From IMG/VR virus record IMGVR_UViG_3300037129_000090: a stretch of DNA of 64,000 nucleotides; one strand, written 5' to 3'. The notes below the pieces were generated by a model. The model was not told the DNA's origin. It searched no databases and saw only the letters and a list, made by a program, of their open reading frames with translations. This DNA comes from a virus. Its lineage: Duplodnaviria > Heunggongvirae > Uroviricota > Caudoviricetes. A program made the position numbers and the translations under genes. Shown piece by piece: positions 1,361 to 63,305 of this stretch (the stretch's first letter is position 1; each line of letters begins with the position of its first letter).

Positions 1361-1503
1361 AGTTGTTGAATAAAACGATATCTATAGCAATGCTTATCCT
1401 TATATACTATGAAGTCTATGTTATTATACATTATTTATATATCTGTAATTTACAAAAATATTATTTAATCATAGTTTTTGTAGACGTAGAAGGAGTTTGT
1501 ATT

Positions 1504-5135: not shown

Positions 5136-5146
5136 GGTGATAGAAA

Positions 5147-13599: not shown

Positions 13600-13616
13600 A
13601 TGCTTAGGTGGTTGAC

Positions 13617-20234: not shown

Positions 20235-20789
20235 ATGGTAGACATTATAACAATAATTGCAATATTAGTAATAATTGTAGCTTTGTTTATAATCAGCTGC
20301 TTTGTGTCTATTGGACCTAAAGAGCGTGGATTATTGACAAAGAAATTTGGTGCTCCGTTGCCACAGGGTGACATAATCGCCTTTAATGGTGAAGCGGGTT
20401 ACCAAGCTAACTTAGTACAACCAGGATGGAGATTTATACTTAAACCGATTTACTCGGTCATGAAAATTCCGCTTGTACAGACAACTGCAAATGGTGGAGG
20501 AATAATAATTTCACAGATTGGTAAAGATATTCCAACTGGATTTATCAATGCAACAGGCGAAGGATTAACACTTGATGATTTCAGAGACCCTAAACAGTTC
20601 CTTGCTAAGAACGGTGAGAAGGGTATACAGAGAATCATGCTTCCGGTATCTACAAGTATGGAAATACATCCCATTGCCTTCCTTGTGAAGACTACACAGG
20701 GTATCTATGGAAAACCACTTACTCAGAATAGTGAAGAGGAATTACAGAGACTTTCACCTGAACTTGTAGTGATCAATGGAGGTAAGTAA
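20235..20789 (+). CDS. membrane-anchored SPFH (band-7) domain protein, N-terminal type
   Basis: N-terminal TM helix, then SPFH-like PGWRFILKPIYSVMKIPL; SD GAGGTAA. Confidence 0.6.
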   Translation: MVDIITIIAILVIIVALFIISCFVSIGPKERGLLTKKFGAPLPQGDIIAFNGEAGYQANLVQPGWRFILKPIYSVMKIPLVQTTANGGGIIISQIGKDIPTGFINATGEGLTLDDFRDPKQFLAKNGEKGIQRIMLPVSTSMEIHPIAFLVKTTQGIYGKPLTQNSEEELQRLSPELVVINGGK

Positions 20790-20790
20790 C

Positions 20791-22374
20791 ATGGGTCTGA
20801 TAGATACTATTGACAATGTGATAGATAACGCATCGAATAAAGTCAATGCTTCTCGTTCAAATCCCAATCTAACTCCTAATAATGTTAAAGTAGTGAGCTC
20901 TTCACCGAAGAGTTTCTATGGCAATGCTACAAATGGGAATTCGACTGAGGACTATATTGGTATTGTGATTGCCAGAGAAGGAGCACCACTTACAGAAGGA
21001 GACATTGCAAGCAGAATTGGTGGTTTCAAAGACATACAGTCACTTGAAGCAAGTGGCGCAACCGATGAAGACCTGATCGCAGAAATCCTGAAAACCAAAA
21101 ACAATCTTCACAATAACTATCAGGATGCACAAGCTTTCTTAAAAGCTGGTGGACAGGTTGGTATGCAGCATGACCCACTTCTTTATGGTGCATATAGGAT
21201 AAATCCAGCATCATTCACAGTTATGCTTGTACCTATGCTCGTTGTTGAGCAAGGTGAAGTAGCAGTCATCAAGGCGTATGTTGGAAACAAAGGTAGAGAT
21301 ACATCCGGTGAAGTATTCAGATTCGGTGAACTGGTAAGACCTGGTGACCGTGGTGTTTGGAGAACTCCATTAAGAACTGGTAAATACGCTATCAACCCCA
21401 AGTGTTATGAAGCGGTTATGGTAAAGACCAGCATCATCAACTTGAACTGGGCTGATGCAATTTCATCTGCCCACCAGTTGGACGCAAGGCTGTCATCTAT
21501 TCATGCAAAAAGCAAGGAAGGTTTCGAGCTTATCATCGACCTGCAAGTGCAGATTCACATTCCAGATACAGAGGCTTCGAAAGTTATCTCGTCTGTCGGT
21601 ACTATGCAGAACCTGATCGACGATATCCTTCAGGCAGCCGTAGGTAATCACTTCCGTGACAGGCTTCAGTCAATGTCTGCTGTGGCGTTTATCAACGACA
21701 GACAAAAGATACAGGAAGAAGCTTTCTCTCACATCAAAGAGAAGCTTACTATGTATGGTGTAGAAACTGTTGGTGTCTATATCCAGAACGTTATCTATCC
21801 TGACCAGCTGATTAAAGTCTTGCAGGACAGAGAACTTGCTAACCAGCAGAAGGATACCTACAAGTCTCAGGAAGCCGCTCAACTCCAGCGTATCGACATG
21901 GAAGCCAAGAAAGGTACTGCCGATAAACAGGCTGAACTTGCCGCATCTCAGGTGGGTATTGATATTGCTGATAACAACTCTAAAGCCAACATCAAGAAAG
22001 CAGAGGGTGACTCAAAGTACACTCAGCAGGTCGGTTTCGCTGAAGCAGATGTTATTAAACAGAAACAGCTGGCAGAAGCCGCAGGTTACGTTGCGAAAGT
22101 CAATGCTCTCGGTGCTGAAAACACTGCGCTCGTAACTGTACTTAAAGACATCGCTGCATCCCAGACCGGCATTAAGATAATGCCAGAAACCATGATTATG
22201 GGTGGTGGCGGAGGCGCTATGGAAGGATTCTTTGCTAAGGCAATGGGTTTCCTTAATGCTTATCAGGGTGTTGTTGCACCGAAGAAACAGCTCGATGCTG
22301 CTTCCGACGAAGACAATACTTCTGGGTCTAACAATAACCAAGACGATGTAGGTGATCTTAAATATATGGCATAA
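20791..22374 (+). CDS. flotillin-like SPFH protein
   Basis: SPFH core (ELIIDLQVQIHIPD...NHFRD) followed by flotillin-type A/E/Q-rich coiled coil (QAELAASQVG...AEADVIKQKQLAEAAG). Real start is MGLIDT after GGAGGT. Confidence 0.75.
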   Translation: MGLIDTIDNVIDNASNKVNASRSNPNLTPNNVKVVSSSPKSFYGNATNGNSTEDYIGIVIAREGAPLTEGDIASRIGGFKDIQSLEASGATDEDLIAEILKTKNNLHNNYQDAQAFLKAGGQVGMQHDPLLYGAYRINPASFTVMLVPMLVVEQGEVAVIKAYVGNKGRDTSGEVFRFGELVRPGDRGVWRTPLRTGKYAINPKCYEAVMVKTSIINLNWADAISSAHQLDARLSSIHAKSKEGFELIIDLQVQIHIPDTEASKVISSVGTMQNLIDDILQAAVGNHFRDRLQSMSAVAFINDRQKIQEEAFSHIKEKLTMYGVETVGVYIQNVIYPDQLIKVLQDRELANQQKDTYKSQEAAQLQRIDMEAKKGTADKQAELAASQVGIDIADNNSKANIKKAEGDSKYTQQVGFAEADVIKQKQLAEAAGYVAKVNALGAENTALVTVLKDIAASQTGIKIMPETMIMGGGGGAMEGFFAKAMGFLNAYQGVVAPKKQLDAASDEDNTSGSNNNQDDVGDLKYMA

Positions 22375-23570: not shown

Positions 23571-25871
23571 ATGAAAATTAGTGTTACGATAGGCGATGCA
23601 CGTAAAGTGCTCAAAGATTTACCTGATAACTCGATTCAGTGTTGTGTGACATCACCACCATATTATAACCTTCGTTCCTATTGCGATGAAGATTCACCAG
23701 AGAAAGAGGATGAAATAGGCACTGAGCAGACTCCTCAAGAATACATTGACAATATGGTTGATGTTTGTCGCGAAATAAAAAGAGTGTTGCGCGACGATGG
23801 AATACTATGGATTAACATAGGTGATGCGTTTTATAATTATCGTCCTGGTAAGGGACAAGCTCTTAGTAAACAAACATTTGCAAAAACAGATCAGGATTTA
23901 CCGCAATTATGTCCAAGACGTGGAAATAAACTTGATGGTCTTAAAGAGAAGGATTTGATTGGAGTGCCGTGGGCTTTAGCCTTTGCACTAAGAGATGATG
24001 GTTGGTTTTTGAGAAGAGACATAATCTGGAACAAGCTAAATAATATGCCAGAGTCAGTTTCTGATAGGGCAACTACTGCACATGAATATATCTTTATGTT
24101 TACTAAAAATAGCAAATATTTTTATGACAGTGAAGCAGTAAAAGAACCTGCTGACTACGATGGGCGTAAGGATACTGTAATGAAAGGTAGCGAAAAATAT
24201 AAAGAAGCCGCAGTACCTGGAAAGAAAGAACAAAGTATGGCTGTTGATGGCACTGAGAGATGGCAACGCAATGAAGATGGTGAGTATCTCAGAAATCTTC
24301 GTTCGGTGTGGAGTGTTCCAACCGAGTCTTATACGGACGCCCACTTTGCTTGTGTAGATGCTGAAACTGAATGTTTGACTGCTGGTGGATGGCGTAGATA
24401 TCATGAATTACGCATTGGTGAGATGATTTATTCTTATAACATGGAAAATGATTGTCTTGAGTTACAGCAACTAGAAGATGTCATGGTTTATTATCATACT
24501 GGTAATATGATTTCAGTAAGTGGTAGGTCTAGCTCGATGTTATTAACTGAAAATCATAGATGTGTAGTAAGACGTAGAAATACAAGGAAAGGTGGTTTTC
24601 GAGATACTATTATAGTTGCAGCTAGTGAACTTAATGGTAGTATGGTATTTCCAGTCGCTGCTGAGCTACACGGTGAACATATAGTACCAGATGAAATTCC
24701 AAATTACTATTATTTATTGGGAATTGTGGCATCTGAAGGTTTTTATAGCGATGCAGGTGAGATTGGGATAGCTCAATCACTCAGGGCTAATCCTAAAATT
24801 GTTAGTAAAATAGACGATGTATTGATTTCACTTAATGCTGAATATAGTAGATGGGTGTCCCATAGTGATAAAAATGGTGATGTTGTAACTTGGCGATTAC
24901 ATGATAAGTATAGAAGTAAAATAAGATTTGATTTACCTGATAAGTTTAGATTACCTGAGAAGCTTTTACATCTTCCAAAGGCTTATATAGACGCGTTTCT
25001 TGAAGGTTTCGTCGATGGTGATGGTAGTGTGAGAGAAGATGGAAGAATTTCAATTTATCAAAAAGTTAAACAGCCACTTGATATTATTCAGGCTATGTAT
25101 GTGCTTAGTGGTAAATCATGTATACTAACACAGAGAGGTAACCAGAATTGGAGTGCCTATGTTACAGATAAAAGATTTAGATATTTTAAAAATGCAACAT
25201 CTGAAATTATCACAGTAGTTCCTCATCAGGGAAATGTCTGGTGTCCTAAAACAAAGAATGGTACTTGGGTAGCTCGTAGACAAGGCAGACCTTTTATTAC
25301 TGGTAATTCATTTTCAACCAAGCTTATCGACCCATGTCTTAAAGCAGGCACTTCAGAGAGAGGTTGTTGTCCTGAATGTGGAGCTCCATGGGAAAGAGTC
25401 GTAGAGAAGCGTAGGATGCAACGCTGTGAGCTCCCACAAGACGATATTAGGTATCGTCCCAATACTTATCATGGCGCTTACGAAGACATCAATGGCAGAG
25501 GCGACGCTGGCTACACAGTATCAAAGACACTCGGATGGCAACCTACATGTGACTGCTATAACGTTACTAGAGTGCAAAAGCCTAAGAAAGATGATTCTGA
25601 CGAGATTAAAATAGAAAGAGAGCGACAATTAAATAACTTCAAAGAATTATCTTCAATTCCATGTACCGCTTTAGACCCATTTGCTGGTACTGGCACTGTA
25701 GGTCGCTGGTGTGTTGAAAACGATAGAAGCGTTGTGTTAATAGAACTTAATCCTAAATATAAACCCTTGATCGAACGTAGGCTCTCCTGCAACAAGGAAG
25801 TTATGTTGATTAAATCAGATAATGGAAATAATATGAATTTTGAAACCTCTACACTAGACGATTGGTTGTAA
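23571..25871 (+). CDS. beta-class DNA methyltransferase (SPPY motif IV N-terminal, motif I DPFAGTGT C-terminal; N6-A or N4-C) interrupted by a LAGLIDADG intein
   Basis: CVTSPPYYNL and ALDPFAGTGTVG extein motifs; SD GGAG. Confidence 0.85.
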   Translation: MKISVTIGDARKVLKDLPDNSIQCCVTSPPYYNLRSYCDEDSPEKEDEIGTEQTPQEYIDNMVDVCREIKRVLRDDGILWINIGDAFYNYRPGKGQALSKQTFAKTDQDLPQLCPRRGNKLDGLKEKDLIGVPWALAFALRDDGWFLRRDIIWNKLNNMPESVSDRATTAHEYIFMFTKNSKYFYDSEAVKEPADYDGRKDTVMKGSEKYKEAAVPGKKEQSMAVDGTERWQRNEDGEYLRNLRSVWSVPTESYTDAHFACVDAETECLTAGGWRRYHELRIGEMIYSYNMENDCLELQQLEDVMVYYHTGNMISVSGRSSSMLLTENHRCVVRRRNTRKGGFRDTIIVAASELNGSMVFPVAAELHGEHIVPDEIPNYYYLLGIVASEGFYSDAGEIGIAQSLRANPKIVSKIDDVLISLNAEYSRWVSHSDKNGDVVTWRLHDKYRSKIRFDLPDKFRLPEKLLHLPKAYIDAFLEGFVDGDGSVREDGRISIYQKVKQPLDIIQAMYVLSGKSCILTQRGNQNWSAYVTDKRFRYFKNATSEIITVVPHQGNVWCPKTKNGTWVARRQGRPFITGNSFSTKLIDPCLKAGTSERGCCPECGAPWERVVEKRRMQRCELPQDDIRYRPNTYHGAYEDINGRGDAGYTVSKTLGWQPTCDCYNVTRVQKPKKDDSDEIKIERERQLNNFKELSSIPCTALDPFAGTGTVGRWCVENDRSVVLIELNPKYKPLIERRLSCNKEVMLIKSDNGNNMNFETSTLDDWL
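24351..25307 (+). mobile_element. intein with LAGLIDADG homing endonuclease domain inside the methyltransferase gene
   Basis: Begins AHFA|CVDAETECLTAGG; block B LTENHRCVV; LAGLIDADG-like YYYLLGIVASEGF and LEGFVDGDGSV; ends ...FITGN|SFS. Confidence 0.75.
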
Positions 25872-28567: not shown

Positions 28568-28778
28568 TTTTTTTTATTTCTATTTAATATTATTTTAATA
28601 TATTGCTTTTACTAAATAGCACAATATAAGCTACGTTTTCTCTTTTTTGGCAACAAGTGTATTAATCTCGCCCAGGATTTATAATTAGCTATATATACGT
28701 CCATGTAATATTTACAAACAGGACAAAATTATAGAGTTTTAGTTATAATATAGTAAAATGTGTTAGGCGTTGATCGGA

Positions 28779-29081
28779 ATGGACATATCTTATCAATTTG
28801 TAGCATTCGTTGTGTTATTGCTTCTGGGCGTAGTCATACTTGATAGTGCGGTTTCATCGCAAGGCGATAGCTTGAACAGTTTAAATAATTATACTCTTAA
28901 CTTTACCCAGAATCCCCAAGCTGGAAGTACGTTAGTTGTAGACCATCAGGTGTTTGAGTTCACAAATAACACATCATTAAATGATGGTAACATTCCTGTG
29001 TTTATCGACGCCGATGTGAATACTACGGCAGCCAATCTTAAGCAAGCGATTGGTAATCATACAAGTCTGGTGGTCTCGTAA
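28779..29081 (+). CDS. small secreted/membrane glycoprotein-like protein, translationally coupled to the giant surface protein
   Basis: Signal/TM segment VAFVVLLLLGVVIL; several N-x-S/T sequons; stop overlaps the next ATG (TAATG). Confidence 0.5.
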   Translation: MDISYQFVAFVVLLLLGVVILDSAVSSQGDSLNSLNNYTLNFTQNPQAGSTLVVDHQVFEFTNNTSLNDGNIPVFIDADVNTTAANLKQAIGNHTSLVVS

Positions 29082-32000
29082 TGAAAACAATGAACATTAT
29101 ACTTTCAGCTTTATTTATTTTATTGCTAGCAGGAATGGCTGGTGTTGCGTCGGCTCAAGCTTATTGGATCGATAATAATAATAATATGTGGGTTAATACA
29201 AGTATACCAGCTGGTATAAACACTACAACACTTTATGTTACAAAAACAGCTGGCAATATATCTAATGGAAGTAATGTGTTTGATTTGTATGATGAATTTA
29301 ATGGCAATACATTGAATAATTCATGGATGAAAATTAGTAATCCAACAACGGCAAGTGTGGGTTCAGGTATCTTGACAGTTAAGCCATCTGGTGGTTCTGC
29401 TTTCATTGGTGGTGTAAGAACAACATCGAATTTGTCTAATAATGATTTCATATTAGATACACGTATGTCTTTTGATAATTATAATGGTGCGATAATGTAT
29501 CGTGCCAGTAATAGTAATTTTTATCCAGGTGATTTTGTGTGGGTTCAAGATACTGGTGCGTGGGGATTTTCTCATAAGCCAACTGCCACAACTTATATTC
29601 TTGATACTAGTGGTGGAATATGCGCAAGTGACACTTATTTTAATCTTACACTTAAAGTATATGGAAATAATATTGAGTTGTACAAAGAGGGTGTATTACA
29701 GAAGACAACTAGTGATTCTAGCATGCCAGCGAGTGGGGGTATAGGTTTTTCATCATGGAGTGGTGGTGGTGCTGATAATAATAAAATAGATTTCGTCAGA
29801 GTTAGAAAATACAATGCAACTGAACCAACTGTAAGTGTTGTGACAAATGGTGTCTCAGGTTATATAGTTAATATATCAAGTGGTACGTCACTTACAAATT
29901 ATCAAGTTAACATAAGTGGTGCGGCTTTAGGTGTTACATCTGCTGGTGATTCATATTCAGTAAGTACTACCCCACCGGGTTTAATTTCGTTTACTTCAAA
30001 TGTAACGTCTGGTACATATCCTTTAACTGTTAAATTCAATGACACATCTTCTAATTCACCAACTATATGGGCATGGAATTTTGGTGATAATACAGCTAAT
30101 GTTACAACACAAAATTGTACACATACTTTTGTGGGTGTTGGAACGTTTACTGTTACACTTGGTGCAACCAGTAATGGGATTACTACATATGCACAGCAAA
30201 CAGTAACTGTAAACAAAACAACTCCAACTATAACATGGTCAAATCCAGCCAACATAACTTATGGAACTGCTTTATCTGGTACACAACTCAATGCAAATGT
30301 AGCTTCTCCTGCTGGTTCAATTACATATAGTCCTGATACAGGTGCGGTACTTGCAGCTGGTACTCAAACGTTAGGCTGTACATTTACACCTACTGATACT
30401 GCTAATTACAGTACAGCCACAGGTAGTGTATCTTTAGTTATTAATAAAGTTACTCCAGTTATAACATGGACTGTGCCTGACGCTATTACTTACGGCACAG
30501 CACTTTCTGGTACTCAATTATCAGCTACGTGTCCTCAAACAGGGTCTTTCACATACAATCCTGTGAGTGGAACAGTGATTGCAGCTGGAACTCAAATTTT
30601 ACAAACTACATTCACACCATCTGGTGCAGATGCTACTAACTATACAACAAACATAGCTTCTGTAAATTTAACTGTGAACAAAGCGACGCCAGTAATTACA
30701 TGGGCTACACCAGCAGCGATTACCTATGGTACAGCTTTGTCTGCAACGCAATTATCAGCCACGTGTCCACAATCAGGTAATTTTGTGTATTCACCTGTTA
30801 GTGGTACAGTACTGGGTGTGGGTAACAAAACACTATCAACTACATTTACTTCGTCAGGTGCAGCTGCTGTAAATTATACGAATAATACAGCATCGGTATA
30901 TTTAACTGTAAATAAAGCAATACCAAGTATTACATGGGCTACGCCGACAGCTGTAAATTATGGAACAGCATTAAGTGATACGCAATTGAATGCAACTTCT
31001 GCAACTGCTGGTGCAATGACATATATTCCTGCTTCTGGAACAATATTGGCGGCTGGCAATCAGACACTTAATGTCACATTAACTCCGACAGACATAGCTA
31101 ATTATACCACTGCTACGGCTTCTGTGACACTCGTAATCAATAAAATAGTGTCTGTTATATCATGGGATACGCCTGAAACTATTGACTATCCGACTGTATT
31201 AAGCGCAACACAATTAAATGCAACTTGTAATGCACCTGGTACATTAGTTTATACTCCGCCAGTTGGTACTTTATTAGGTGTAGGAACGCATAATCTTAGT
31301 GTTACATTTACACCGTCAGACCTGACCAATTATACAACAGCTACAGACCAAGTCGCACAGATCGTTATAAATCAAAATAAGACTAATTTAACATGGATTC
31401 CTCCCGCAGACATAGTATATGGTACGCCATTGAGTGCAACGCAACTAAATGCTAGTGGTGGTGATATACCTGGTGTTTTTACATATGCTCCAGCAACTGG
31501 AACTGTATTGGGTGTAGGTACACAGATTCTTAATGCTACGTTTACACCAACAGATTATCTAAATTATTCAGGTAATTCAATAAATGTAACATTGAATGTG
31601 ACACAAGCAACACCAACAATTACTTGGAGTACACCAGCTAACATAACTTACGGAACTGGTTTATCTACAACCCAATTGTCTGCTACTTCTCCACAATCAG
31701 GAAGTTTTGCCTATTCACCTACAACAGGCACTATATTTGGTGTAGGTACACATACTCTAAATACAACATTTACACCGTCTGGTGCATCTGCGGTAAACTA
31801 TACCACAAATACAGCTTCTGTAAACTTAATAGTTAATCAAGCAACACCAAGTATTACATGGAGTAATCCAGCGGCTATAACTTATGGAACAACATTGAAC
31901 TCTACTCAACTTTCAGCAACTTGTATTGCAGCTGGTACATTTACATATACACCAGCGAGCGGGTACATAATGCACGCGGGCGCTGGACAAACTCTACATG

Positions 32001-35000
32001 TGGACTTTGCGCCAACAGATGCTGTAAATTATACAGTGGCTTCAAAAGATGTCGCAATAACGGTGAATAAAGGCACAACCAGTTTCACAGCTAATGTAAG
32101 TACAGTTACTATACCTGCTGGTGTACAATTTACAGATACTTCAACAGGTGCACCGACTCATTGGTCTTGGGACTTTGGTGATGGAACTACCGATACTGTG
32201 CAAAATCCAATACACTATTTTACCACAGCTGGTCATCATAGTGTAACTTTGAATTTCTCGGACTTCGCAAATTACACCTACGAATCTGGACCAACCGATA
32301 TTTTTGTGCTTAATGCAATACCAGTTGCAAATATCACAATGAATGGAAAGCAGGGCGCAATCAATACAACTGCACCATTAATAGCTTACTTTAATGATAC
32401 TTCAAACGGTGTAAATATTACACAATGGTCTTGGGATTTCAATGATACTATGGGTGGTCTTCAATATGCAACAACTCAGAATGCCACTCACGTATTCCCA
32501 TTGGCTGGTAATTATACAGTAACGTTAGCTGTAACAAACGATGGTGGTATTAATACTACAGAAATGCCAATAACAGTTGTTGGTGGCGGAGGTACTGGTG
32601 GACCACAAAAACCAATCGCTGGTTTCTCTGCGAATGCATCAATTGGTTATATTCCATTAACTGTACAATTCACGAATGTTAGTGCATTTACACCTACTTC
32701 ATGGCGTTGGGATTTCGGTGACAATACAAATAGTACTCTAGAAAACCCAATTCACACCTATCCAGATCGCGGTGTATATAATGTTACATTCACTGCGACA
32801 AATGACTATGGATCAGATACAGCACAGTGTATTAACTTTATTCATACATACTACGCTCCGCCTGTTACTAACTTTATCACAAATGTAACTAATGGCGATA
32901 TACCTCTAAATGTTCAATTTACCGATACATCAACAGGTATAATTTCCGCGTACAATTGGTCATTTGGTGATGGTACGTATAGTACAGAACAAAATCCAAT
33001 ACATGTATATACGCAAATTGGTTTGTATAATGTATCGTTGAATGCAAGTAACATAGACAATAACTATACAGTTACAAGAGTCAACTACATAGTTGTGGGC
33101 GTACCAATACCTGCACCAGTGGCTGATTTCAATGCAAATATTACAAGTGGAGCTGCACCTACAACAGTTCAGTTTGTTGATAATAGTACTGGTCCGGTTA
33201 GTAATTACACGTGGGATTTTGGTGATGGTATTGGTTCGTATACTCAAAATCCAGTACATGTATATGCAAATAATGGTAATTACACAGTTTCGTTAAATGT
33301 TAGTAATACAAAAGGGTTTAATGTATCAACAAAATATAACTATATAGTTGTAGCAGAAAGTATACCAGTGCCAGTTTCAGATTTCCATGCAGTAACTACA
33401 TCTGGTGGTGTACCTTTCAGTACACAATTTATAGACGATAGTACTGGTATTGTGCAGAGTCGTGTATGGGATTTCGGAGATGGTAACACAGCGACATCAC
33501 AGAATCCAACACACACCTATACACAAGTTGGTGTTTATACTGTCTCGTTGAATGTGAGTAATAGTAATGGATTCAATGTGTCAGTCAAAGCAAATTATAT
33601 AAATGCGACTTCACAATCACCAGCACCAACTGCGGCATTCCATGCAGTAACCGCCACAGGAATACCACCACTCGATGTACAGTTCATAGATGATAGTACA
33701 GGTGTTGTTGATAATCGTGACTGGGATTTCGGCGATGGTAGTACAGCACATTCACAGAATCCAATACACACGTATACGCAAGCAGGTACTTATACAGTTA
33801 CATTGAATGCCAGTAACTTCAATGGATTTACTACTTCGACAAGAACTAATTACATTGGTGTTAGTGCTGTAGAACCAGCACCAGTTTCTGCATTCCATGC
33901 AAATATGACTGGTGGATTAGTACCTCTAACTGTTCAGTTTGTAGATGACAGCGATGGTAATGTCTCTGGTAGAGTGTGGAATTTCGGTGATGGTAATGGT
34001 TCGAGTGCATTGAATCCAATACATACATATTCAACAGTCGGTGTTTATACAGTTTCTTTGAATGTAAGTAATGCTGGTGGTTCTAATGAATCAATGAAAG
34101 TAGGTTATATTAATGCAACAGACATTGCAATCCCGCACCCACCACTTGCCTCATTCAGAGAGAATGTAACTGGTGGAATTGCGCCGGTTACAGTACAATT
34201 CAAAGATACAAGTAGTAATACACCAACATACTGGTTATGGAACTTCGGAGATGGTGTAGGAACAAATGAGCAGAACCCCACCCACACATATACAGTACCT
34301 GGTACTTACAATGTAACATTGGAAATTGGTAATGTTGATGGAAATGATACAATCTCCGAGCTTGTAAATGTGTTAAAACCAATTAGTATACCAGTTGCTA
34401 ATTTCACTTCGGATGTTAGTGTAGGTGGGCTACCACTGACCGTACATTTCATAGACCTTTCGAGTAATGACACAGCTAATTGGTTATGGGACTTTGGTGA
34501 TAATAATACGGCTATAATCGAGAGTCCTACCCATGTATACCAGCAAGCTGGAAATTACACAGTTAATTTAACTGTGAATAACTCTGCCGGTAGCAACACA
34601 ATGACAAAGATTGATTACATAGTTGTAGGCAACCAAGTAAGGGCAAATTTTACAACAAATAACACGAATGGTACAGTTCCTCTGTTTGTTCAATTCACCG
34701 ATGTGTCGACAGGTTCACCGCAGAACTTTAGTTGGAATTTCGGAGATAATGCAACAAGCACAGAGCAGAATCCGATGCATGAATACAATGTATCTGGAAA
34801 CTACAGTGTTTCAGAGACTGTGGGGTTAGGTAATGCGAATGATACAATGACAAAAACGGATTATATTACAGCGCAATTACCATCAGCTGCACCACCGATC
34901 GCTCAGTTCTATGTGAGTGAAACCAATATTTCAATACCAGATGGTGTAGATACCAACACATCCGTGAAATTTACCGATACTTCGATAGGTGTTGGTATTA

Positions 35001-35617
35001 ATGCATGGGTGTGGGTGTTTGGTGATGGAAATACCAGTAATGAGCAGAACCCGACTCATATCTATCAGAAACCTGGCACATATAACGTTGTGTTGACAGC
35101 CACTTCACCGTATGGCACATCTGTTTCTGCACCGACAACGTTGAACATCATACAAGGCGCACCAAATGTAACTATGATGGTAAATGTGTCTGAAGGGTAT
35201 GTTCCCTTAACAGTAGCATTCATAGATTCAACTACTAATGTGAGTGGGCAAACATATTGGGATTTTGGTGACGGTAGTACTTCGAATGAATCTAATCCTA
35301 TTCATACATATATTGACGATGGTATTTATGGGGCTACGTTAATTGTAAATAGGAATGGACAAAATTATAGTATTACTCAGATGATCAATGCACATTACGT
35401 TACTGTGGCGACAGTAAAAATTAATGCGACTCAGCAGGACCAGATGCTAGATGTAAATTCAACAGCCGGTAAATCATTGAGATTGGAACAAACAAGCAAA
35501 CAATCAGCAATGTATGGTGCTGTTCATGCAGTTGAAAAAGGAACAAGCGGCGGATACACCTTATTAGTTGTGGCAATTCTAATATTGGGTGCTCTATCAT
35601 TCTGGTTCTTGTTTTAA
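29081..35617 (+). CDS. giant secreted surface protein: signal peptide, ConA-like/LamG-like N-domain, about 12 Ig-like MBG-like repeats (loose family call), about 18 PKD domains, C-terminal TM anchor
   Basis: Signal peptide ...GVASA|QA; repeated ITYGTALS..TQL.AT...GTF.Y.P..GT.LAAG.QTL...FTPTD..NY units; repeated W.FGDG..S.EQNP.HTY PKD motifs; C-terminal hydrophobic LLVVAILILGALSFWFLF; very high density of N-x-S/T sequons. Confidence 0.85.
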   Translation: MKTMNIILSALFILLLAGMAGVASAQAYWIDNNNNMWVNTSIPAGINTTTLYVTKTAGNISNGSNVFDLYDEFNGNTLNNSWMKISNPTTASVGSGILTVKPSGGSAFIGGVRTTSNLSNNDFILDTRMSFDNYNGAIMYRASNSNFYPGDFVWVQDTGAWGFSHKPTATTYILDTSGGICASDTYFNLTLKVYGNNIELYKEGVLQKTTSDSSMPASGGIGFSSWSGGGADNNKIDFVRVRKYNATEPTVSVVTNGVSGYIVNISSGTSLTNYQVNISGAALGVTSAGDSYSVSTTPPGLISFTSNVTSGTYPLTVKFNDTSSNSPTIWAWNFGDNTANVTTQNCTHTFVGVGTFTVTLGATSNGITTYAQQTVTVNKTTPTITWSNPANITYGTALSGTQLNANVASPAGSITYSPDTGAVLAAGTQTLGCTFTPTDTANYSTATGSVSLVINKVTPVITWTVPDAITYGTALSGTQLSATCPQTGSFTYNPVSGTVIAAGTQILQTTFTPSGADATNYTTNIASVNLTVNKATPVITWATPAAITYGTALSATQLSATCPQSGNFVYSPVSGTVLGVGNKTLSTTFTSSGAAAVNYTNNTASVYLTVNKAIPSITWATPTAVNYGTALSDTQLNATSATAGAMTYIPASGTILAAGNQTLNVTLTPTDIANYTTATASVTLVINKIVSVISWDTPETIDYPTVLSATQLNATCNAPGTLVYTPPVGTLLGVGTHNLSVTFTPSDLTNYTTATDQVAQIVINQNKTNLTWIPPADIVYGTPLSATQLNASGGDIPGVFTYAPATGTVLGVGTQILNATFTPTDYLNYSGNSINVTLNVTQATPTITWSTPANITYGTGLSTTQLSATSPQSGSFAYSPTTGTIFGVGTHTLNTTFTPSGASAVNYTTNTASVNLIVNQATPSITWSNPAAITYGTTLNSTQLSATCIAAGTFTYTPASGYIMHAGAGQTLHVDFAPTDAVNYTVASKDVAITVNKGTTSFTANVSTVTIPAGVQFTDTSTGAPTHWSWDFGDGTTDTVQNPIHYFTTAGHHSVTLNFSDFANYTYESGPTDIFVLNAIPVANITMNGKQGAINTTAPLIAYFNDTSNGVNITQWSWDFNDTMGGLQYATTQNATHVFPLAGNYTVTLAVTNDGGINTTEMPITVVGGGGTGGPQKPIAGFSANASIGYIPLTVQFTNVSAFTPTSWRWDFGDNTNSTLENPIHTYPDRGVYNVTFTATNDYGSDTAQCINFIHTYYAPPVTNFITNVTNGDIPLNVQFTDTSTGIISAYNWSFGDGTYSTEQNPIHVYTQIGLYNVSLNASNIDNNYTVTRVNYIVVGVPIPAPVADFNANITSGAAPTTVQFVDNSTGPVSNYTWDFGDGIGSYTQNPVHVYANNGNYTVSLNVSNTKGFNVSTKYNYIVVAESIPVPVSDFHAVTTSGGVPFSTQFIDDSTGIVQSRVWDFGDGNTATSQNPTHTYTQVGVYTVSLNVSNSNGFNVSVKANYINATSQSPAPTAAFHAVTATGIPPLDVQFIDDSTGVVDNRDWDFGDGSTAHSQNPIHTYTQAGTYTVTLNASNFNGFTTSTRTNYIGVSAVEPAPVSAFHANMTGGLVPLTVQFVDDSDGNVSGRVWNFGDGNGSSALNPIHTYSTVGVYTVSLNVSNAGGSNESMKVGYINATDIAIPHPPLASFRENVTGGIAPVTVQFKDTSSNTPTYWLWNFGDGVGTNEQNPTHTYTVPGTYNVTLEIGNVDGNDTISELVNVLKPISIPVANFTSDVSVGGLPLTVHFIDLSSNDTANWLWDFGDNNTAIIESPTHVYQQAGNYTVNLTVNNSAGSNTMTKIDYIVVGNQVRANFTTNNTNGTVPLFVQFTDVSTGSPQNFSWNFGDNATSTEQNPMHEYNVSGNYSVSETVGLGNANDTMTKTDYITAQLPSAAPPIAQFYVSETNISIPDGVDTNTSVKFTDTSIGVGINAWVWVFGDGNTSNEQNPTHIYQKPGTYNVVLTATSPYGTSVSAPTTLNIIQGAPNVTMMVNVSEGYVPLTVAFIDSTTNVSGQTYWDFGDGSTSNESNPIHTYIDDGIYGATLIVNRNGQNYSITQMINAHYVTVATVKINATQQDQMLDVNSTAGKSLRLEQTSKQSAMYGAVHAVEKGTSGGYTLLVVAILILGALSFWFLF

Positions 35618-35621
35618 GTAT

Positions 35622-35658
35622 GTATTACCGACCAACATTGGTTGGTTTTTTTTTAATA
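35622..35658 (+). terminator. intrinsic terminator ACCAAC-attg-GTTGGT followed by T9
   Basis: Perfect hairpin plus oligo-T directly after the giant gene. Confidence 0.6.
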
Positions 35659-35939: not shown

Positions 35940-37375
35940 AAGATTATAAGTGGGGTCAACTACCGCTAGGCTAAAGACCTAGCGGCTTGTAATTTCCTCA
36001 GATTTTACAATTTGATTCAAACGCTAAAAACAAACGCTTTGGTCTGTTGACTAGACCTCTACTAACTATCTTCTGTATAGGAGAATCGCTAGCTACTTTT
36101 CTCAATATATTTAATGCACCATTTACATCTGCATTAATTAATTGACCAGTAATACTTTTATACAAGCCTCTCTTAACACGTCTTGATTTACCATAAGGTT
36201 GTTTTTTAATTTCATCTAAAGCCAAAGCATCGGTTCTACTTGTATATGCTTCATCAACTAATTGATATTTGATACCATAGTAGTCACATTTACTTTGAAG
36301 CTTACCTTTGAATTTTCCAAATGGTATTGACACAAAGCTCTGATTATTGCGCTTGCCATGATTTATTCCTTGCTTTATTTCCTTAAGTTCACCGATTAGA
36401 ATATTACCTATCTTATTTTCTAAACAGTGTTTTATGATGTAGTTAACTGTTCGGTTCATGAACTCTGATATCTTGTTAGCGCGTTTAGTTAAGAGTTTAA
36501 TCTGCTTATTTGTTATTAATTTTATTCCTTGTTTATCTTTGATACTCTGTAATCTAGCATTCTCCTTGTTATACCACTGGTTAATAGATTTTATATACTT
36601 ACCATCTATGATAATGGCAGTCCCATCGGTATCTATCCAAGTTGCAAAATTAGAAACGCCTAAATCTATGCTAAGATATTTAGAGTAATCAAGTTCTTGT
36701 TGTTGTTTCTTTTCTTCATAACAATATTTTATTTTGAAATACCGCCCATCATACATCGGTATGACATGAACTTCTTGTATACTGAACTTTTTAGTTCTCA
36801 ATGGTTTTGGTAATTTAAAAGTTAACAGCTTTTTAGCATTCCTGTTTTGCTTTAGAAACTCAATTGAAATACCCAACCGTATATTATTACCTTTGAATGA
36901 AAAAGCATTCTTAGGAAATGCTATCAAGAAATTACTATCTTTGTTAAGATAATGTGGTATATTAGGTTTATCCAATTGTCCATTTCTATAGAGTTTTAAC
37001 AAACCAAAAAAGCTTCGCATCCCTCTTTCTACCATCTTCAGAGATTGCTGAGCACTAGCCGCCTGCATTAACTTATAATTCTCATCTTCCTTGCAAAGAT
37101 GATAATTTTGAGGATATTTCAAAAATTCATTATTATTGAAGAAATATTGTCGAGTGTTATACAATCCTAAATTATACAAGTTTTTAGAAGCGCGACTAAG
37201 TGACCTCAACATTATATATTGTTCCTTGTTTAATCTAAGATTATTTGTGATACTCAACATTATGTATACATAATGTGATATTTGTATATATACTTTTGTC
37301 TAAATCAAATTGTATTTAACTTCCGGTCGCAATTCATCCACGAAACTAAAGATTTCGTGGTTTTCTTATGAACCT
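35940..37375 (-). mobile_element. IS200/IS605-like non-autonomous element (tnpB only)
   Basis: Subterminal hairpins with identical loop TCTTTAG at both ends on the minus strand: CCACGAAA-TCTTTAG-TTTCGTGG (37346..37368) and CCGCTAGG-TCTTTAG-CCTAGCGG then TAGTTGAC (35950..35982). No tnpA. Confidence 0.65.
35998..37260 (-). CDS. tnpB: TnpB, paralog of the IS607-associated copy; zinc finger absent
   Basis: Ruv[10 protein letters not shown], RuvC-II ...LVDEAYTSR, Ruv[15 protein letters not shown]. No Cys pairs between II and III. N-terminal [18 protein letters not shown] matches ASKNLFNFSNYLVRQRFF of 5147..6379. Confidence 0.85.
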
Positions 37376-39497: not shown

Positions 39498-40238
39498 GTG
39501 AATTATATTGACGATGATATTATTAAATCATTAAAATATTTAAAGTATGTACAAGAAGACACACGTAATGGTATGACTACAGCTGAGCTTATCGAATACA
39601 ATGAGCATATTGATGCAGTTTACATTCATAATACAACTGCAATTGAAGGAAACAGCCTTAGTCTAACTGCCGTCAAAAAGCTATTGAAAGAACCTGCTTT
39701 CAGGCAGTGTATATGGGGTGTTACTGAACGCGAATTCGATGAGGTATTGAATTACCCAAAAGTATTGAAGTATAGTCGAGGTTATACCGGTAACGTAGAT
39801 TTGCGTTTTATAAAACAACTACATGAGCGCATAATGACAGATATCCTTGAATTACCAGGTGAATTCAGGATACATAATAACATCTATATTTCAGGTGTAG
39901 ATAAATTGCTCACACCAGCTGATTTAATAATAGATGAATTAGAAGTTGCATTGCGCTATTACTACTCTAATGTTAAAAGTGACAGTAATCTTTTCGAGCG
40001 AGCTGTGATATTTCATTATATTTTCGAAGGTATTCATCCTTTCCTAGATGGTAATGGAAGGACAGGTAGAGAGATTTTTAATTATATGATTACCAATGCA
40101 GGCTATCCCATGATGCTCTTTGAAGGTCACAGAAATTACTATCTGTCTTTGCTGCAATGTGGTGACGCTGGGTTAATGGAGGAGATGGTAAATGGTTTTG
40201 CTAAAATAATGCTTCGTGATTATGGGATTAAGTGTTGA
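39498..40238 (+). CDS. Fic/Doc family protein
   Basis: Canonical Fic motif HPFLDGNGRTGR; GTG start after TGAGGTAAT. Confidence 0.8.
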   Translation: MNYIDDDIIKSLKYLKYVQEDTRNGMTTAELIEYNEHIDAVYIHNTTAIEGNSLSLTAVKKLLKEPAFRQCIWGVTEREFDEVLNYPKVLKYSRGYTGNVDLRFIKQLHERIMTDILELPGEFRIHNNIYISGVDKLLTPADLIIDELEVALRYYYSNVKSDSNLFERAVIFHYIFEGIHPFLDGNGRTGREIFNYMITNAGYPMMLFEGHRNYYLSLLQCGDAGLMEEMVNGFAKIMLRDYGIKC

Positions 40239-41945: not shown

Positions 41946-42046
41946 GAGGTTCGCAAGAAAACCACTGAGTCTTCAGCTCAGTGGATGAATTGCGATGACA
42001 AAATTTTACCAAAAAGTATATATGTTGGTAAAACAATATACGTACT

Positions 42047-43159
42047 ATGTTAAAAGCCTACAAATATCGACTATATCCTACAAAGAACCAAGCTGATCAA
42101 TTTAATCAGCATATCGGTAGTTGTAGATTTGTCTATAATTGGGCTCTTGACCAGAAAATTAAAGCATATGAACAAACAGGTAAATCTGTATCAAGATATA
42201 CATTAAATAAACTTATACCATCTCTTAAAACCAATAGTCCGTGGTTAAGTGAAGTTAATTCACAATCATTACAGGGAATGACTAAACAGGTAGAATCTGC
42301 TTTCACTAAATTCTTTAGAGAAAAAGCAGGTTTCCCAAAGTTCAAATCTAAGAAGAATCCAATACAGTCATTTCCAGTACCACAGCATTATGAAGTAGAT
42401 TTTGATAGTGGTACAATCAAGTTACCTAAGATAGGTGACGTGAAAGTTGTTCTACATAAAAAATTTACAGGTACTCTTAAAACTGCTGTTATCTCAAGAA
42501 CAGTCACAGGCAAGTATTTCATTAGTGTCCTAGTTGATAATAATGAAGCTACTCCTAGTAAATCTATATTTTCTGAAATAACAACTGTAGGTGTAGATGT
42601 TGGTATCAAGGATTTTGCAGTTCTCTCGACAGGAGAAAAAGTAGAGAATCCAAAATATCTTAAAAATTCGATTCATAGACTAAAATGTCTTCAACGAAGA
42701 GTATCAAAGAAAGTTAAGGGTTCTAAAAATAGAAATAAAGCAAGACAACATCTTTCAAAGATTCATGAAATCATTACCAATCAAAGAAATAATTTCCAAC
42801 ACAAAATCTCTTCTAGATTGATATGCGAGAACCAAGCTATAGCGTTGGAAACTTTGAATGTTAAAGGTATGTTAAAGAATCACTGTCTTGCCCAATCGAT
42901 AAGTGATGTAGCATGGAGTAGTTTTGTAACTAAGTTAGAGTACAAAGCCGAATGGTTCGGAAAAACCATACTTAGAATAGGTAGATTTGAACCGTCGAGT
43001 AAGACGTGTAGTATTTGTGGCTATCGTAATAATACTCTAACATTGAAAGATAGGGAATGGGAATGCCCTGATTGCAAAACAAAACATGATAGAGATATTA
43101 ATGCGGCGATAAACATTAAGAAATTTGCATTAATAGATCAGAATTTAATCGGAATATAA
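42047..43159 (+). CDS. tnpB: TnpB (canonical, with zinc finger)
   Basis: RuvC-I VGVDVGIKD, RuvC-II LEYKAEWFG, Zn finger CSICGY...CPDCKTKHDRD, RuvC-III DINAAINI. Confidence 0.9.
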   Translation: MLKAYKYRLYPTKNQADQFNQHIGSCRFVYNWALDQKIKAYEQTGKSVSRYTLNKLIPSLKTNSPWLSEVNSQSLQGMTKQVESAFTKFFREKAGFPKFKSKKNPIQSFPVPQHYEVDFDSGTIKLPKIGDVKVVLHKKFTGTLKTAVISRTVTGKYFISVLVDNNEATPSKSIFSEITTVGVDVGIKDFAVLSTGEKVENPKYLKNSIHRLKCLQRRVSKKVKGSKNRNKARQHLSKIHEIITNQRNNFQHKISSRLICENQAIALETLNVKGMLKNHCLAQSISDVAWSSFVTKLEYKAEWFGKTILRIGRFEPSSKTCSICGYRNNTLTLKDREWECPDCKTKHDRDINAAINIKKFALIDQNLIGI

Positions 43160-43256
43160 CACCTATGGAACGTAGGGAAGAGCCTGTGGACTTGTGAACA
43201 CTAGTTCGAAGTATGAAGCAGGAAGCCACTGAGTCTTTAGCTCAGTGGTAGTTCAC
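43160..43256 (+). ncRNA. putative omegaRNA (right-end element RNA) scaffold of the TnpB element
   Basis: Lies immediately 3' of tnpB. Structured, with stems that covary against the copies at 1..127 and (minus strand) 35950..35982 while the loop TCTTTAG and tail TAGTTSAC are conserved. Confidence 0.55.
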
Positions 43257-43367
43257 ATGTTGTTTCTTTTTCAGTACCGCAACCATCGCTACAACTATTG
43301 CAGTACCCCAACTGATTCAATGCTGAACCACACATACTACATCTTTTATGCCATTGTTACCACCTTC

Positions 43368-43664
43368 TTAAGTAAACGAAATTTCAATACCGCTATCGTC
43401 AGCGTAATCGATACACATTCTTAAGAAATATTTTACCTTTTTTCTCTGCCATTTGTCAGTTATAAATGTGTGCGCTATCTTCCACTTATGCTTTAATTCA
43501 GCTTTCATAAAGGTTTTCCAACCAACACCACCCTGTTTTTCTCTAAAGTCAGCGACACCCATTAAGTTGTAAAATTCTGTATATAACACATTATTGCAGC
43601 TAAAACACATATCTGTTACGCCGTAATCATCACTTACCCGATGTGCAACAACATCTATTCCCAT
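43368..43664 (-). CDS. hypothetical protein
   Basis: ORF only. Confidence 0.45.
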   Translation of the reverse strand: MGIDVVAHRVSDDYGVTDMCFSCNNVLYTEFYNLMGVADFREKQGGVGWKTFMKAELKHKWKIAHTFITDKWQRKKVKYFLRMCIDYADDSGIEISFT

Positions 43665-43678
43665 TGTCTACTACCTCC

Positions 43679-44251
43679 TTATTCATCTTCATCCTCTTCG
43701 ATGTCGAGATACCACTTAATGAAGTTGTATCCAAGGTCAAATACATCCAGAGTTTCCCTGAACTTCGCTTTTTGAAGAATATCTTGTATAGGCGGAATTT
43801 CATCTTCATCTCTGTCGTCCATTGTTATAAGATAGTCCAGAGCATCGTTAACATAGGTTTCTCTTGTAAATGGATTGATAGCAAACCAATTAGCTAGAAC
43901 ATCCAAACCCATAGTACAACAAACCTCACCCTCTACGATTGACAACATTACACGATCCAAGTCCTGCGATGTGTACGTTCCCAAATCCAGTTCCAGAAGT
44001 CTAGCAAAATGATTTAAGAACTCATACATATCTTCTCTTGTGTACTCATCCTTTATCATGTCGTATGTTTCCAATCTACCAATGACGTTTTCAGGAGCAT
44101 CATCAGCGAAGACGGTGACGATCTTTCCTTTAATCTGCTTTATTGTTAGAAAACTTCTCAGTGAATTAACCATTTCTTGTGTAATTTCAGTAGGCATAAT
44201 TATCATCTCCTTTATTTTATATGTCATTAATAACAGCATAATGCCAGCCAT
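43679..44251 (-). CDS. hypothetical acidic protein
   Basis: SD GGAGATGATAA plus ATG. Confidence 0.55.
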   Translation of the reverse strand: MAGIMLLLMTYKIKEMIIMPTEITQEMVNSLRSFLTIKQIKGKIVTVFADDAPENVIGRLETYDMIKDEYTREDMYEFLNHFARLLELDLGTYTSQDLDRVMLSIVEGEVCCTMGLDVLANWFAINPFTRETYVNDALDYLITMDDRDEDEIPPIQDILQKAKFRETLDVFDLGYNFIKWYLDIEEDEDE

Positions 44252-44450
44252 CTTCTTTAGACCAAACTTTTATTTTCATAAGCGTTGCGAATTCAATACA
44301 AGCCTTAAGAGTAGTAGGTCTCTTAACATCTGGATAAATATCTTTATTTTCTCTGTATAATTTTTGTACTGATTTTATAAAGCCATCTCGATGTTCTCCC
44401 ATGCCATCTCCAAGTCTATACATAGGATTACGACACTTCATTGTTATCAT
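44217..44450 (-). CDS. hypothetical small protein
   Basis: SD GGAGATGATAACAATG. Confidence 0.5.
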   Translation of the reverse strand: MITMKCRNPMYRLGDGMGEHRDGFIKSVQKLYRENKDIYPDVKRPTTLKACIEFATLMKIKVWSKEDGWHYAVINDI

Positions 44451-44470
44451 CTCCTGTATTTGATTTTAAG

Positions 44471-44542
44471 GGCACATAAAGGGAATTGAACCCTGATATT
44501 AACTCCCACAACGTTACGCATTACCGCTGTGCTACATATGCC
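44471..44542 (-). tRNA. tRNA-His (anticodon GTG) with encoded G-1, no encoded CCA
   Basis: Manual fold of the reverse complement GGCATATGTAGCACAGCGGTAATGCGTAACGTTGTGGGAGTTAATATCAGGGTTCAATTCCCTTTATGTGCC: acceptor 7 bp (with G-U pairs), anticodon loop TTGTGGG, T-loop TTCAATT, extra 5' G pairing with discriminator C. Preceded by a TAACAA...TTATATATA promoter motif. Confidence 0.55.
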
Positions 44543-63180: not shown

Positions 63181-63199
63181 AATGACGTAAAATAGCTTA

Positions 63200-63300
63200 A
63201 ACTTAGCTAAAAAGGATAAAACCAATAGCTTTAAATAGATTACTTGCATTAGTCTTATTGTGGTACGATTTACCACAAAACAACAAAATAAGGAGATAAC
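63200..63300 (+). promoter_or_regulatory. conserved promoter/operator module, plus-strand copy (GCTTTAAATAG ... TTGTGGTA-cgattt-ACCACAAAACAA - AAGGAGAT) driving the GHKL ATPase gene
   Basis: Aligns base-for-base with the minus-strand copies. Confidence 0.5.
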
Positions 63301-63305
63301 AAGCG

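Follow-up and report, generated by a model that had tools for sequence, protein, structure and literature searches.

What is the function of a 2178-residue exported repeat protein, and of the small protein encoded directly upstream of it, on an element recorded as a tailed virus? The question is raised by a stretch of 64,000 nucleotides (nt) from IMG/VR record IMGVR_UViG_3300037129_000090 (Caudoviricetes), here called the window, in which the two genes occupy positions 28779–35617. Quite likely, the larger product (the giant protein) is a mobile-element-encoded surface protein of archaea that is exported, anchored and glycosylated. With moderate confidence we propose the fuller description: a membrane-anchored, N-glycosylated, glycan-binding adhesin that is encoded by the element together with a small partner.

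The giant gene is a single unbroken open reading frame (ORF) of 2178 amino acids (aa) on the + strand (29081–35617). It was also recovered at full length in an independent Logan assembly (SRR12362150), and identical partial copies of the protein are present in three JGI metagenomes. Since the same protein is found in independent assemblies, the repetitive gene is not an assembly chimera or artefact. Opposite-strand ORFs within the gene were all ≤117 aa and had no support. Repeat units were delimited using hidden Markov models (HMMs) trained on the giant protein itself, with Pfam run alongside. The domain order is signal peptide, 276-aa head, one PKD domain, eight immunoglobulin-like (Ig-like) repeats, 13 further PKD domains and a C-terminal transmembrane (TM) helix (Table 1). 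The self-trained models give eight Ig-like units of 77–78 aa and 14 PKD units; Pfam likewise gives 14 PKD stretches in the whole protein. The PKD domains carry the WDFGDG...H.Y...G.Y.V.L motif and score far above threshold at full length (PKD_4, PF18911, 631.6 bits, E = 1.1e-194, cut-off 27; PKD, PF00801, 406.9 bits, E = 1.2e-124), with pairwise identities of 26–64% over all 14. Read by eye, the first residues (MKTMNIILSALFILLLAGMAGVASA|QAYW) show the parts expected of a Sec signal peptide: n-region, h-region and AXA site. The anchor is the sole strongly hydrophobic stretch (19-aa Kyte–Doolittle maximum of 2.6 at residue 2160); the chain ends in ...GALSFWFLF, with neither a PGF/PEF motif nor a basic tail. 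The Methanosarcina S-layer domain PF07752 was not matched by Pfam in the giant protein. An earlier, sequence-only reading of this DNA had described the uninterrupted 2178-aa ORF, the signal peptide with its ASA|QA site, the single C-terminal TM anchor, the overlap with a small upstream gene, the terminator and a sequon content beyond composition, all of which were borne out. Its counts of about 12 Ig-like repeats and about 18 PKD domains were reduced to eight (aa 376–1000) and 14, and its assignment of the Ig-like repeat to the MBG family did not hold.

Table 1. Positions of the gene pair, its domains and its flanking elements in the window.
Feature	Position	Strand	Remarks
AT-rich intergenic region	28568..28778	+	Upstream of the gene pair; sequence read directly
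Partner gene, 100 aa	28779..29081	+	Gene callers in public assemblies start at ATG 28779
Signal peptide, Sec-type	29081..29158	+	aa 1–26; predicted cleavage VASA|QA
Head	29159..29986	+	aa 27–302; DUF2341-like strands, ConA-like β-sandwich, small C-terminal β-sandwich
PKD domain 1	29987..30208	+	aa 303–376; Pfam and self-trained HMM
Eight tandem 77-aa Ig-like repeats	30206..32080	+	aa 376–1000; self-trained HMM and Pfam
Thirteen further PKD domains	32081..35398	+	aa 1001–2106; Pfam and self-trained HMM
Membrane-proximal linker	35399..35548	+	aa 2107–2156; no Pfam/NCBIfam family match
C-terminal TM anchor and stop codon	35549..35617	+	aa ~2157–2178, GGYTLLVVAILILGALSFWFLF; hydropathy maximum
Terminator-like element	35627..35654	+	8-bp hairpin with 4 G-C pairs, followed by a T run

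The Ig-like repeat has the consensus ..P.ITW..P..ITYGTALS.TQL.A....G.F.Y.P..GT.L..G...L...FTP.D..NYT....V.L.V, and its copies are 43–73% identical to each other. In the full-length Pfam scan this part (aa 380–1000) drew weak Ig-like matches. Searched as a block against Pfam, the repeats match Ig_CFAP65_4th (96 bits, E = 1.7e-27, eight stretches) and also HYDIN_VesB_CFA65-like_Ig (36.4 bits), ASH (36.8 bits) and Cep192 Ig models. A single repeat scores 18.6 bits, under the cut-off, and the CFAP65/HYDIN/ASH label is therefore valid at the superfamily level only. Neither the single repeat nor the whole block matched MBG models (Pfam MBG_2, PF18676, and relatives) at E ≤ 10. MBG_2 is also present in many bacterial proteins that carry the Ig-like repeat. 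In three of these the repeat HMM and MBG_2 fall on separate, alternating segments; in one (P0248) MBG_2 covers aa 1004–1077, between repeat matches that end at 1002 and start at 1080. MBG_2 thus co-occurs and alternates with the repeat but is a distinct domain, and an MBG identity for the repeat was ruled out.

The closest full-length relative (P0160, 3086 aa) lies in a syntenic locus and is 65% identical over 84% of the query. Its gene order is PD-(D/E)XK nuclease, methylase, small ORFs, primase, 116-aa ORF, 100-aa ORF, giant gene. The similarity is uneven along the protein: the signal peptides are 88% identical, the stalks 73–94% and the C-termini (linker and TM helix) 74%, and the heads 32%. 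P0160 carries in addition a second ConA-like module and an inserted YVTN β-propeller. A second related locus (L008) encodes a partner of 70% identity and is homologous to the window from 28710 through the partner gene (75% nt identity). This homology stops where the giant gene begins; the ConA-like head is replaced there by a YVTN propeller, followed by PKD and then by the same Ig-like repeats. Related elements therefore keep the partner, signal peptide, stalk and anchor and exchange the heads. Scans of IMG/VR with the head, partner and primase as queries gave no relative, and scans of metagenome contigs gave no match. The conserved coupled partner and the clean exchange of heads are the modestly new parts of the finding.

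The partner has an N-terminal hydrophobic helix (aa 7–25) followed by a domain of ~75 aa with six N-x-S/T sequons. Only five relatives were found in 5.8e9 proteins (100, 72, 72, 70 and 46% identity); the 100% copies sit in the same element in six samples. Several N-x-S/T positions are kept even at 46% identity. The partner's TAA shares one base with the ATG of the giant gene (TAATG, 29078–29083), an overlap that points to a translationally coupled pair. The 1-nt overlap is kept in the P0160 loci; L008 has a 15-nt gap instead. The coupled upstream gene had been put at 103 aa in the sequence-only reading, a size that applies to a TTG start at 28770; the overlap itself stands with either start. 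Two TATA-like boxes lie upstream of the pair, TTTATAAT at 28678–28685 and TTATAATATA at 28743–28752, the second ~30 nt ahead of the partner ATG. Together with the similarity to L008, which begins at 28710, they suggest a possible archaeal promoter that would give a near-leaderless transcript. Ten bases past the giant stop codon is the terminator hairpin (35627–35646), followed by T9 if the last stem base is counted; as RNA it folds with −10.9 kcal/mol (fold z = −2.2). The pair lies between a primase block and a TnpB gene and brings along an AT-rich upstream region and a terminator of its own, as is typical of accessory cargo.

Three further observations concern the partner. A 104-aa ORF ahead of another giant PKD gene (P0199) is unrelated to it and looks cytoplasmic. 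Residues 22–99 of the partner (28842–29078) show a recurrent, non-significant likeness to RfbH/DegT sugar aminotransferases, centred on ...PVFIDADVNTTAANLKQAIGNHT..., which appears in NCBIfam (E = 0.04), in tblastn (E = 0.2) and in a JGI protein name. At E values of 0.04 to 0.2 an aminotransferase assignment is not significant, and the likeness was treated as chance or a relic. A contig of 66.7 kb from the same sample as P0160 (P0174; ENA ERZ1426646) carries, within 16 kb and beside IS200/IS605 genes, two more gene pairs in which a 101-aa ORF directly precedes the gene for a giant protein, one of 1270 aa (LamG_3 and PKD) and one of 2658 aa (PKD and Ig-like). The cassette may thus be multi-copy in some elements.

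Sequons in the giant protein were counted as N-x-S/T with x not proline and compared with 5000 shuffles. The protein has 104, against 48.3 ± 5.9 expected (z = 9.4, observed-to-expected ratio 2.15); the highest shuffle reached 73. A sequon frequency equal to the composition-matched expectation, which the sequence-only reading had named as a refuting outcome, was thus not obtained. Control motifs were at expectation ([ST]xN, z = 1.6; QxS/T, z = −0.3; DxS/T, z = 0.8; NxxS/T, z = −1.3). Asparagine immediately before S/T was depleted (z = −4.0), which indicates a specific preference for N-x-S/T. The Ig-like units hold 27 sequons over 14 alignment columns and the PKD units 61 over 28 columns, and each repeat type has one column in which the sequon is conserved in at least half of the units. 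With sequons spread over 42 distinct columns, the excess is not explained by inheritance from an ancestral repeat. Density is 4.8 per 100 aa in the giant protein and 6.0 in the partner (observed-to-expected ratio 2.9), compared with ~0.6 in the other 55 ORFs of the window (ratio 1.12). Among 118 other listed homologues, the named ones mostly bacterial, the median ratio is 1.24 and most tabulated densities are 0.5–2.4 per 100 aa. The sequons are also under constraint. P0160, whose stalk is colinear and 86% identical, keeps 77 of the 82 stalk sequons; the +2 S/T is retained at 98.8% in sequons and at 85.2% of other S/T positions (Fisher p = 3e-4). Retention of asparagine (95% in sequons, 90% otherwise) does not differ significantly. 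Such an excess is what would be seen in an archaeal N-glycoprotein, on which the glycans would be attached by AglB.

Sequons are enriched at other places in the window. Two adjacent small predicted membrane proteins (7010–7498 and 7569–8171; TM near residue 13 and 173, respectively) have 3.1 and 2.0 sequons per 100 aa (observed-to-expected ratios 3.7 and 2.6) and may be a second surface glycoprotein pair; the first has a weak PHROG glucosyltransferase match (E = 6.6e-4). In the 961-aa ORF of the D5-like primase–helicase (1363–4248), which starts with TTG, 14 sequons were counted where 5.9 were expected, and the region near residue 35 is moderately hydrophobic (19-aa Kyte–Doolittle maximum of 1.95). 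The ORF may have a mis-assigned start or N-terminal part.

A very high and conserved sequon density might also mark a protective glycoprotein brush, which would mask S-layer receptors (superinfection exclusion) or shield the cell, the head being incidental. Carriage as mobile-element cargo with a promoter-like region and terminator of its own would suit such a role, as would the pairing of such proteins with glycosyltransferases on Methanosarcina plasmids. A brush leaves unexplained, however, why the distal head is exchanged on a conserved stalk, and the head comes from a widespread, conserved family with a lectin fold. We regard this explanation as unlikely, if the best placed of the alternatives.

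The next explanation turns on what carries the pair. The window has a GC content of ~36% and its genes lie in single-strand blocks. They encode the D5-like primase–helicase, an IS607-like resolvase and TnpB pair and two further TnpB proteins; a dCTP deaminase/dUTPase, a Rad3-type helicase, a DHH phosphoesterase, a thymidylate kinase and a thymidylate-synthase-like protein; a radical SAM protein with an intein, an HNH endonuclease, an SPFH protein and a PD-(D/E)XK nuclease; an N6/N4 methylase with a LAGLIDADG intein; Fic and SNF2 proteins; and two tRNAs. This content supports the mobile-element context suggested by the sequence-only reading. A primase–polymerase is ~22% identical to the primases of the haloarchaeal tailed viruses HVTV-1 and HCTV-5, a distant similarity, and relatives of the D5-like protein in the reference collections of phages and plasmids are all distant. 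Pfam and PHROGs identified no capsid, portal, terminase or other structural gene among the ~50 ORFs scanned in the 64-kb window, which covers only part of the element. The seven tandem repeats in the 64 kb are weak and low-copy, and the ends of the element, whose longest known contig is 77 kb, lie outside the window. We describe it as an archaeal extrachromosomal or viral element and leave it unclassified.

On such an element the giant protein could instead be a virion component, a spike or receptor-binding protein that is inserted into the host membrane and acquired at budding by an archaeal virus with an envelope or other membrane; the exchanged heads would then set the host range. The element has virus-like gene content (the haloarchaeal-virus-like primase, inteins, homing endonucleases, nucleotide metabolism and tRNAs), ConA-like and DUF2341 domains are known from proteins of archaeal viruses and from receptor-binding proteins of phages, and a swapped head on a conserved stalk is typical of receptor-binding proteins. 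Pleolipovirus spikes have the same layout of signal peptide, C-terminal TM helix and glycosylation. Against this stand the lack of structural genes in the window, the lack of IMG/VR matches to the head, partner or primase, and the position of the gene between primase and TnpB among replication and accessory genes, outside a structural module; the annotated relatives most similar to it are encoded by plasmids. To our knowledge, the enveloped archaeal viruses also have much smaller genomes. The signal peptide, the TM anchor and the position of the pair outside a structural module favour display on the host surface, and a virion spike seems improbable to us.

The nature of the head bears on a further explanation. 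With the head alone (aa 27–302) as query, a word-indexed homologue search found no relatives; an exhaustive HMMER search found 177 remote relatives of 25–35% identity, most over all 276 residues, and among the ten top-scoring ones was a protein from a Woesearchaeota metagenome-assembled genome (MAG). The isolated head matches DUF2341 (PF10102) at 25.2 bits, above the gathering threshold of 23.4; in the full-length scan the score is just 20.2 bits. DUF2341 is matched by 27 of 30 aligned head homologues (best E = 4.7e-18). With the 30-sequence alignment, AlphaFold2 predicted the head with a mean predicted local distance difference test score (pLDDT) of 81.5 and a predicted template modelling score (pTM) of 0.83; without an alignment the pLDDT was 32. 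The predicted structure has the two-sheet jelly roll of ConA-like lectins and glucanases and is of the LamG/DUF1080/GH16-like kind, in agreement with the lectin/glucanase-like N-domain that had been suggested from the sequence.

A tethered glycoside hydrolase would use a GH16-like head to degrade extracellular polysaccharide, for example of a matrix or aggregate. The family profile of the head does reach GH16 glucanases and porphyranases (E = 3e-5 to 1e-3), structural matches of the head include GH16 enzymes, and a match on a Methanomethylovorans plasmid is annotated as disaggregatase-related. In the family profile, however, the segment aligned with the GH16 ExDxE stretch (3d6e, 3o5s; ..wdeIDIEF..) is variable and non-acidic, the catalytic E-x-D-x(x)-E motif was not found in aa 27–302, and just one of the 30 family members reaches Pfam GH16 at E = 0.01. 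With the catalytic segment neither conserved in the family nor present here, a GH16 enzyme role was rejected, and a hydrolase acting at the surface is very unlikely. The missing motif and the variability of the segment aligned to it indicate instead that the head is probably a non-catalytic carbohydrate-binding module of the ConA-like fold, as modelled.

Affinity differs between parts of the locus. Searched alone, the Ig-like repeat finds mostly bacterial proteins among its named high-scoring matches (45–57% identity over the block; Acidobacteria, Bacteroidota, Verrucomicrobia and Planctomycetes). In a tblastn search of plasmids, five Methanosarcina plasmids rank first (39–43% identity). One of them, NZ_CP009525.1 of M. 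barkeri str. Wiesmoor, encodes WP_011302000.1, which has a signal peptide, two LamG-type heads, two PKD domains, eight units of the same Ig-like repeat and 3.3 sequons per 100 aa. Its C-terminus, ...PGFGIACGVACLFGVLLYKRE, is of the PGF type (an archaeosortase signal, read by eye). Its gene adjoins glycosyltransferase and IS200/IS605 (TnpA/TnpB) genes in a plasmid region of 35% GC. A further relative (P0269) combines PKD and the same Ig-like repeat with the S-layer domain PF07752. Reference phages gave weak PKD matches only. For the TnpB encoded beside the giant gene, the closest copies come from methanogens, a Methanosarcina MAG (76% identity) and a Methanocella MAG (64%); bacterial copies reach 46% at most. 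The Methanosarcina and Methanocella MAG loci share only this insertion sequence (IS) with the window, and they are therefore weak evidence for the host.

Bacterial closest homologues had been named in advance as a finding that would speak against an archaeal origin. That holds for the repeat on its own; the full-length relatives are in related elements and the plasmid kin are archaeal. Given the syntenic full-length relatives in related elements and the repeat in the M. barkeri plasmid protein, the archaeal reading stands. An affinity of the Methanosarcinales type is the reading best supported by the comparisons, and the most likely host is a Methanosarcina-type methanogen (Methanosarcinales). 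The earlier description of an archaeal-type surface glycoprotein gained support from the PKD proteins of the Methanosarcina plasmids, the PF07752 domain of P0269 and the TnpB affinity. That the protein is a giant bacterial adhesin on a bacterial element, its sequon excess a by-product of the repeat consensus, is highly improbable: the named repeat matches are mostly bacterial, and the N-Y-T in the consensus does give bacterial homologues an average observed-to-expected ratio of 1.24 (some ~2), but the sequon density is 2–9 times that of most tabulated bacterial relatives and is spread over the 42 columns, the nearest full-length relatives and best annotated plasmid matches are archaeal, TnpB is closest to the methanogen copies, the primase is closest to those of haloarchaeal viruses, and YVTN/PKD/S-layer combinations occur among the relatives.

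Several observations weigh against the reading of the pair as an archaeal adhesin and its partner. No CRISPR spacer or binning link to a host was found, and the host is assigned from homology alone; the clusters of ten other window proteins contain unbinned metagenome sequences only. The partner had no match in Pfam, NCBIfam or a PDB profile search, and its relative of 46% identity does not adjoin a giant gene. Residues 122–154 of the head model are of low confidence. ConA-like modules are frequent in phage tail proteins and occur in several archaeal virus proteins, among them a DUF2341 protein of a Sulfolobales rudivirus. No NCBIfam model of an archaeosortase or sorting signal was matched in the last 72 aa at E ≤ 1, and the anchor thus lacks the signal that the Methanosarcina plasmid relative shows.

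For the glycosylated adhesin that we propose, the two genes would be transcribed as one unit and travel as cargo on an extrachromosomal or viral element of archaea. The giant protein would be exported through Sec and remain tethered by its C-terminal TM helix, so that a rod of 22 tandem β-sandwich domains (1 PKD, 8 Ig-like and 13 PKD) would project outward. At 3.5–4 nm per domain, the rod would measure on the order of 80 nm and reach past the S-layer, and the non-catalytic ConA-like carbohydrate-binding head would be at its tip. The host oligosaccharyltransferase AglB would glycosylate the ~100 N-x-S/T sites, stiffening and protecting the rod. The head would bind a glycan on neighbouring cells, in the matrix or on another surface, which would make the protein an adhesin, and exchange of heads between related elements would retarget the ligand. 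The TAATG overlap would fix the ratio in which the 100-aa partner, predicted to be a small membrane-anchored glycoprotein, is made. The partner may act at the conserved membrane-proximal end, in assembly or anchoring.

A bolder extension, which we consider doubtful, is that the partner and the head-swapping stalk form the transmission module of a new class of Methanosarcinales elements. The module might be an archaeal counterpart of the plasmid-encoded 'aggregation substance' and join donor and recipient cells, or it might serve as the envelope spike on a large archaeal virus of a membrane-containing type not seen before. If so, the heads (ConA-like, double ConA-like with propeller, propeller alone) would set which cells can be reached. 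The cassette bears on how extrachromosomal elements of methane-cycling archaea spread from cell to cell and change their hosts, and it is a candidate determinant of host range or cell contact. The ~100 predicted N-glycosylation sites on simple, well folded domains would be a useful substrate for studies of methanogen N-glycosylation, and the cassette could be expressed in the genetically tractable Methanosarcina.

The following features were observed elsewhere in the window. Between 62150 and 63590 there are eleven exact copies of GCGCCCGCG (0 expected in shuffles; one further copy window-wide), five on the + strand (62167–62573) and six on the − strand (62686–63580), within ATACGTAT/GCGCATAAT-rich repeats. 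Cumulative GC skew reaches its minimum at this cluster, and the long block of minus-strand genes ends here; the cluster is a candidate for the element's replication origin or for an iteron region. At ~42000–44500, the cumulative GC-skew maximum, the strands converge (+ on the left, − on the right), with tRNA-His at 44470–44541; this looks like a replication terminus or replichore junction. The radical SAM protein with a Hint domain (intein) is encoded at 13608–15443. The N6/N4 DNA methylase with the LAGLIDADG insert (23571–25871) has 766 aa; its counterpart in a related element is intein-free and has 447 aa. The TnpB genes are located at 4551–6379 (IS607-like, with a serine resolvase), 35998–37260 (− strand, beside the giant gene) and 42047–43159. 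At 20235–22374 the SPFH/Band-7 gene has ahead of it, in an NfeD-like position, a gene for a small protein with an N-terminal TM helix. The SPFH/Band-7 gene and the Fic-domain gene (39498–40238) are accessory genes typical of mobile elements.

Among known systems, the RTX/Bap-type giant adhesins of bacteria (MpIBP, SiiE and LapA) use Ig-like rods to project ligand-binding modules. The giant protein shares with bacterial repeat adhesins the tandem Ig-like rod and, at 45–57% identity, the repeat family. The bacterial repeat proteins use a type I secretion system (T1SS), a type IX system (T9SS) CHU_C domain or a dockerin, have few sequons and carry interleaved MBG_2 domains, whereas the giant protein has Sec export, a C-terminal TM helix and a sequon load of archaeal type.

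The Borgs and other Methanoperedens elements are large, low-GC elements of Methanosarcinales; their genes include those for surface proteins of the S-layer and PEGA types and others termed 'cell decoration' genes. Among the Borg core genes are those for a DNA methylase, which carries an intein in some cases, for a Rad3-related helicase, for a radical SAM protein and for a homing endonuclease (PMC11208441). The window has counterparts to all four of these core gene types, a GC content of ~36% and single-strand gene blocks. It differs in the lack of pervasive perfect tandem repeats, and its iteron-like cluster suggests an internal origin; Borgs and mini-Borgs are marked by such repeats and by terminal inverted repeats, with replication starting at the ends. 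By term counts, the text available to us from the literature on Borgs and Methanoperedens elements contains no mention of PKD.

VARTIG is a chromosomal system of Thermococcales only, in which the C-terminal Ig domain and the downstream genes are variable (Makarova et al., 2021; PMC8416519). By description, with no homology claimed, the present pair resembles it as a large archaeal Ig-domain protein whose terminal region is recombined between relatives, inside a small conserved gene module. Here, in contrast, it is the N-terminal head that varies, and the small gene is upstream and conserved.

Methanosarcina chromosomes reportedly encode surface proteins made of YVTN β-propeller, PKD and related modules (Jing et al., 2002, Structure). 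The giant protein is likewise modular and secreted with PKD arrays, and its relatives carry YVTN heads and, in one case, PF07752; it differs in that it lacks PF07752 itself and is not chromosomal. We know of no pairing of the chromosomal proteins with a small coupled glycoprotein. The class of PKD/LamG/YVTN surface proteins, on Methanosarcina plasmids as well, is already known, and the gain is incremental unless a role in transmission is shown.

A literature search for functional characterization of the Methanosarcina plasmid PKD proteins found none. WP_011302000.1 resembles the giant protein in its signal peptide, ConA-like (LamG-type) heads, eight Ig-like repeats matching at 39–43% identity, PKD domains, membrane anchor, raised sequon density, low-GC element and IS200/IS605 neighbours. 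It differs in having two PKD domains, two LamG heads, an extra central domain, a PGF-type C-terminus and adjacent glycosyltransferases, and no partner gene was seen upstream of it. The giant protein, for its part, carries 14 PKD domains, a head of the DUF2341 type and a plain TM tail, and it has a coupled partner.

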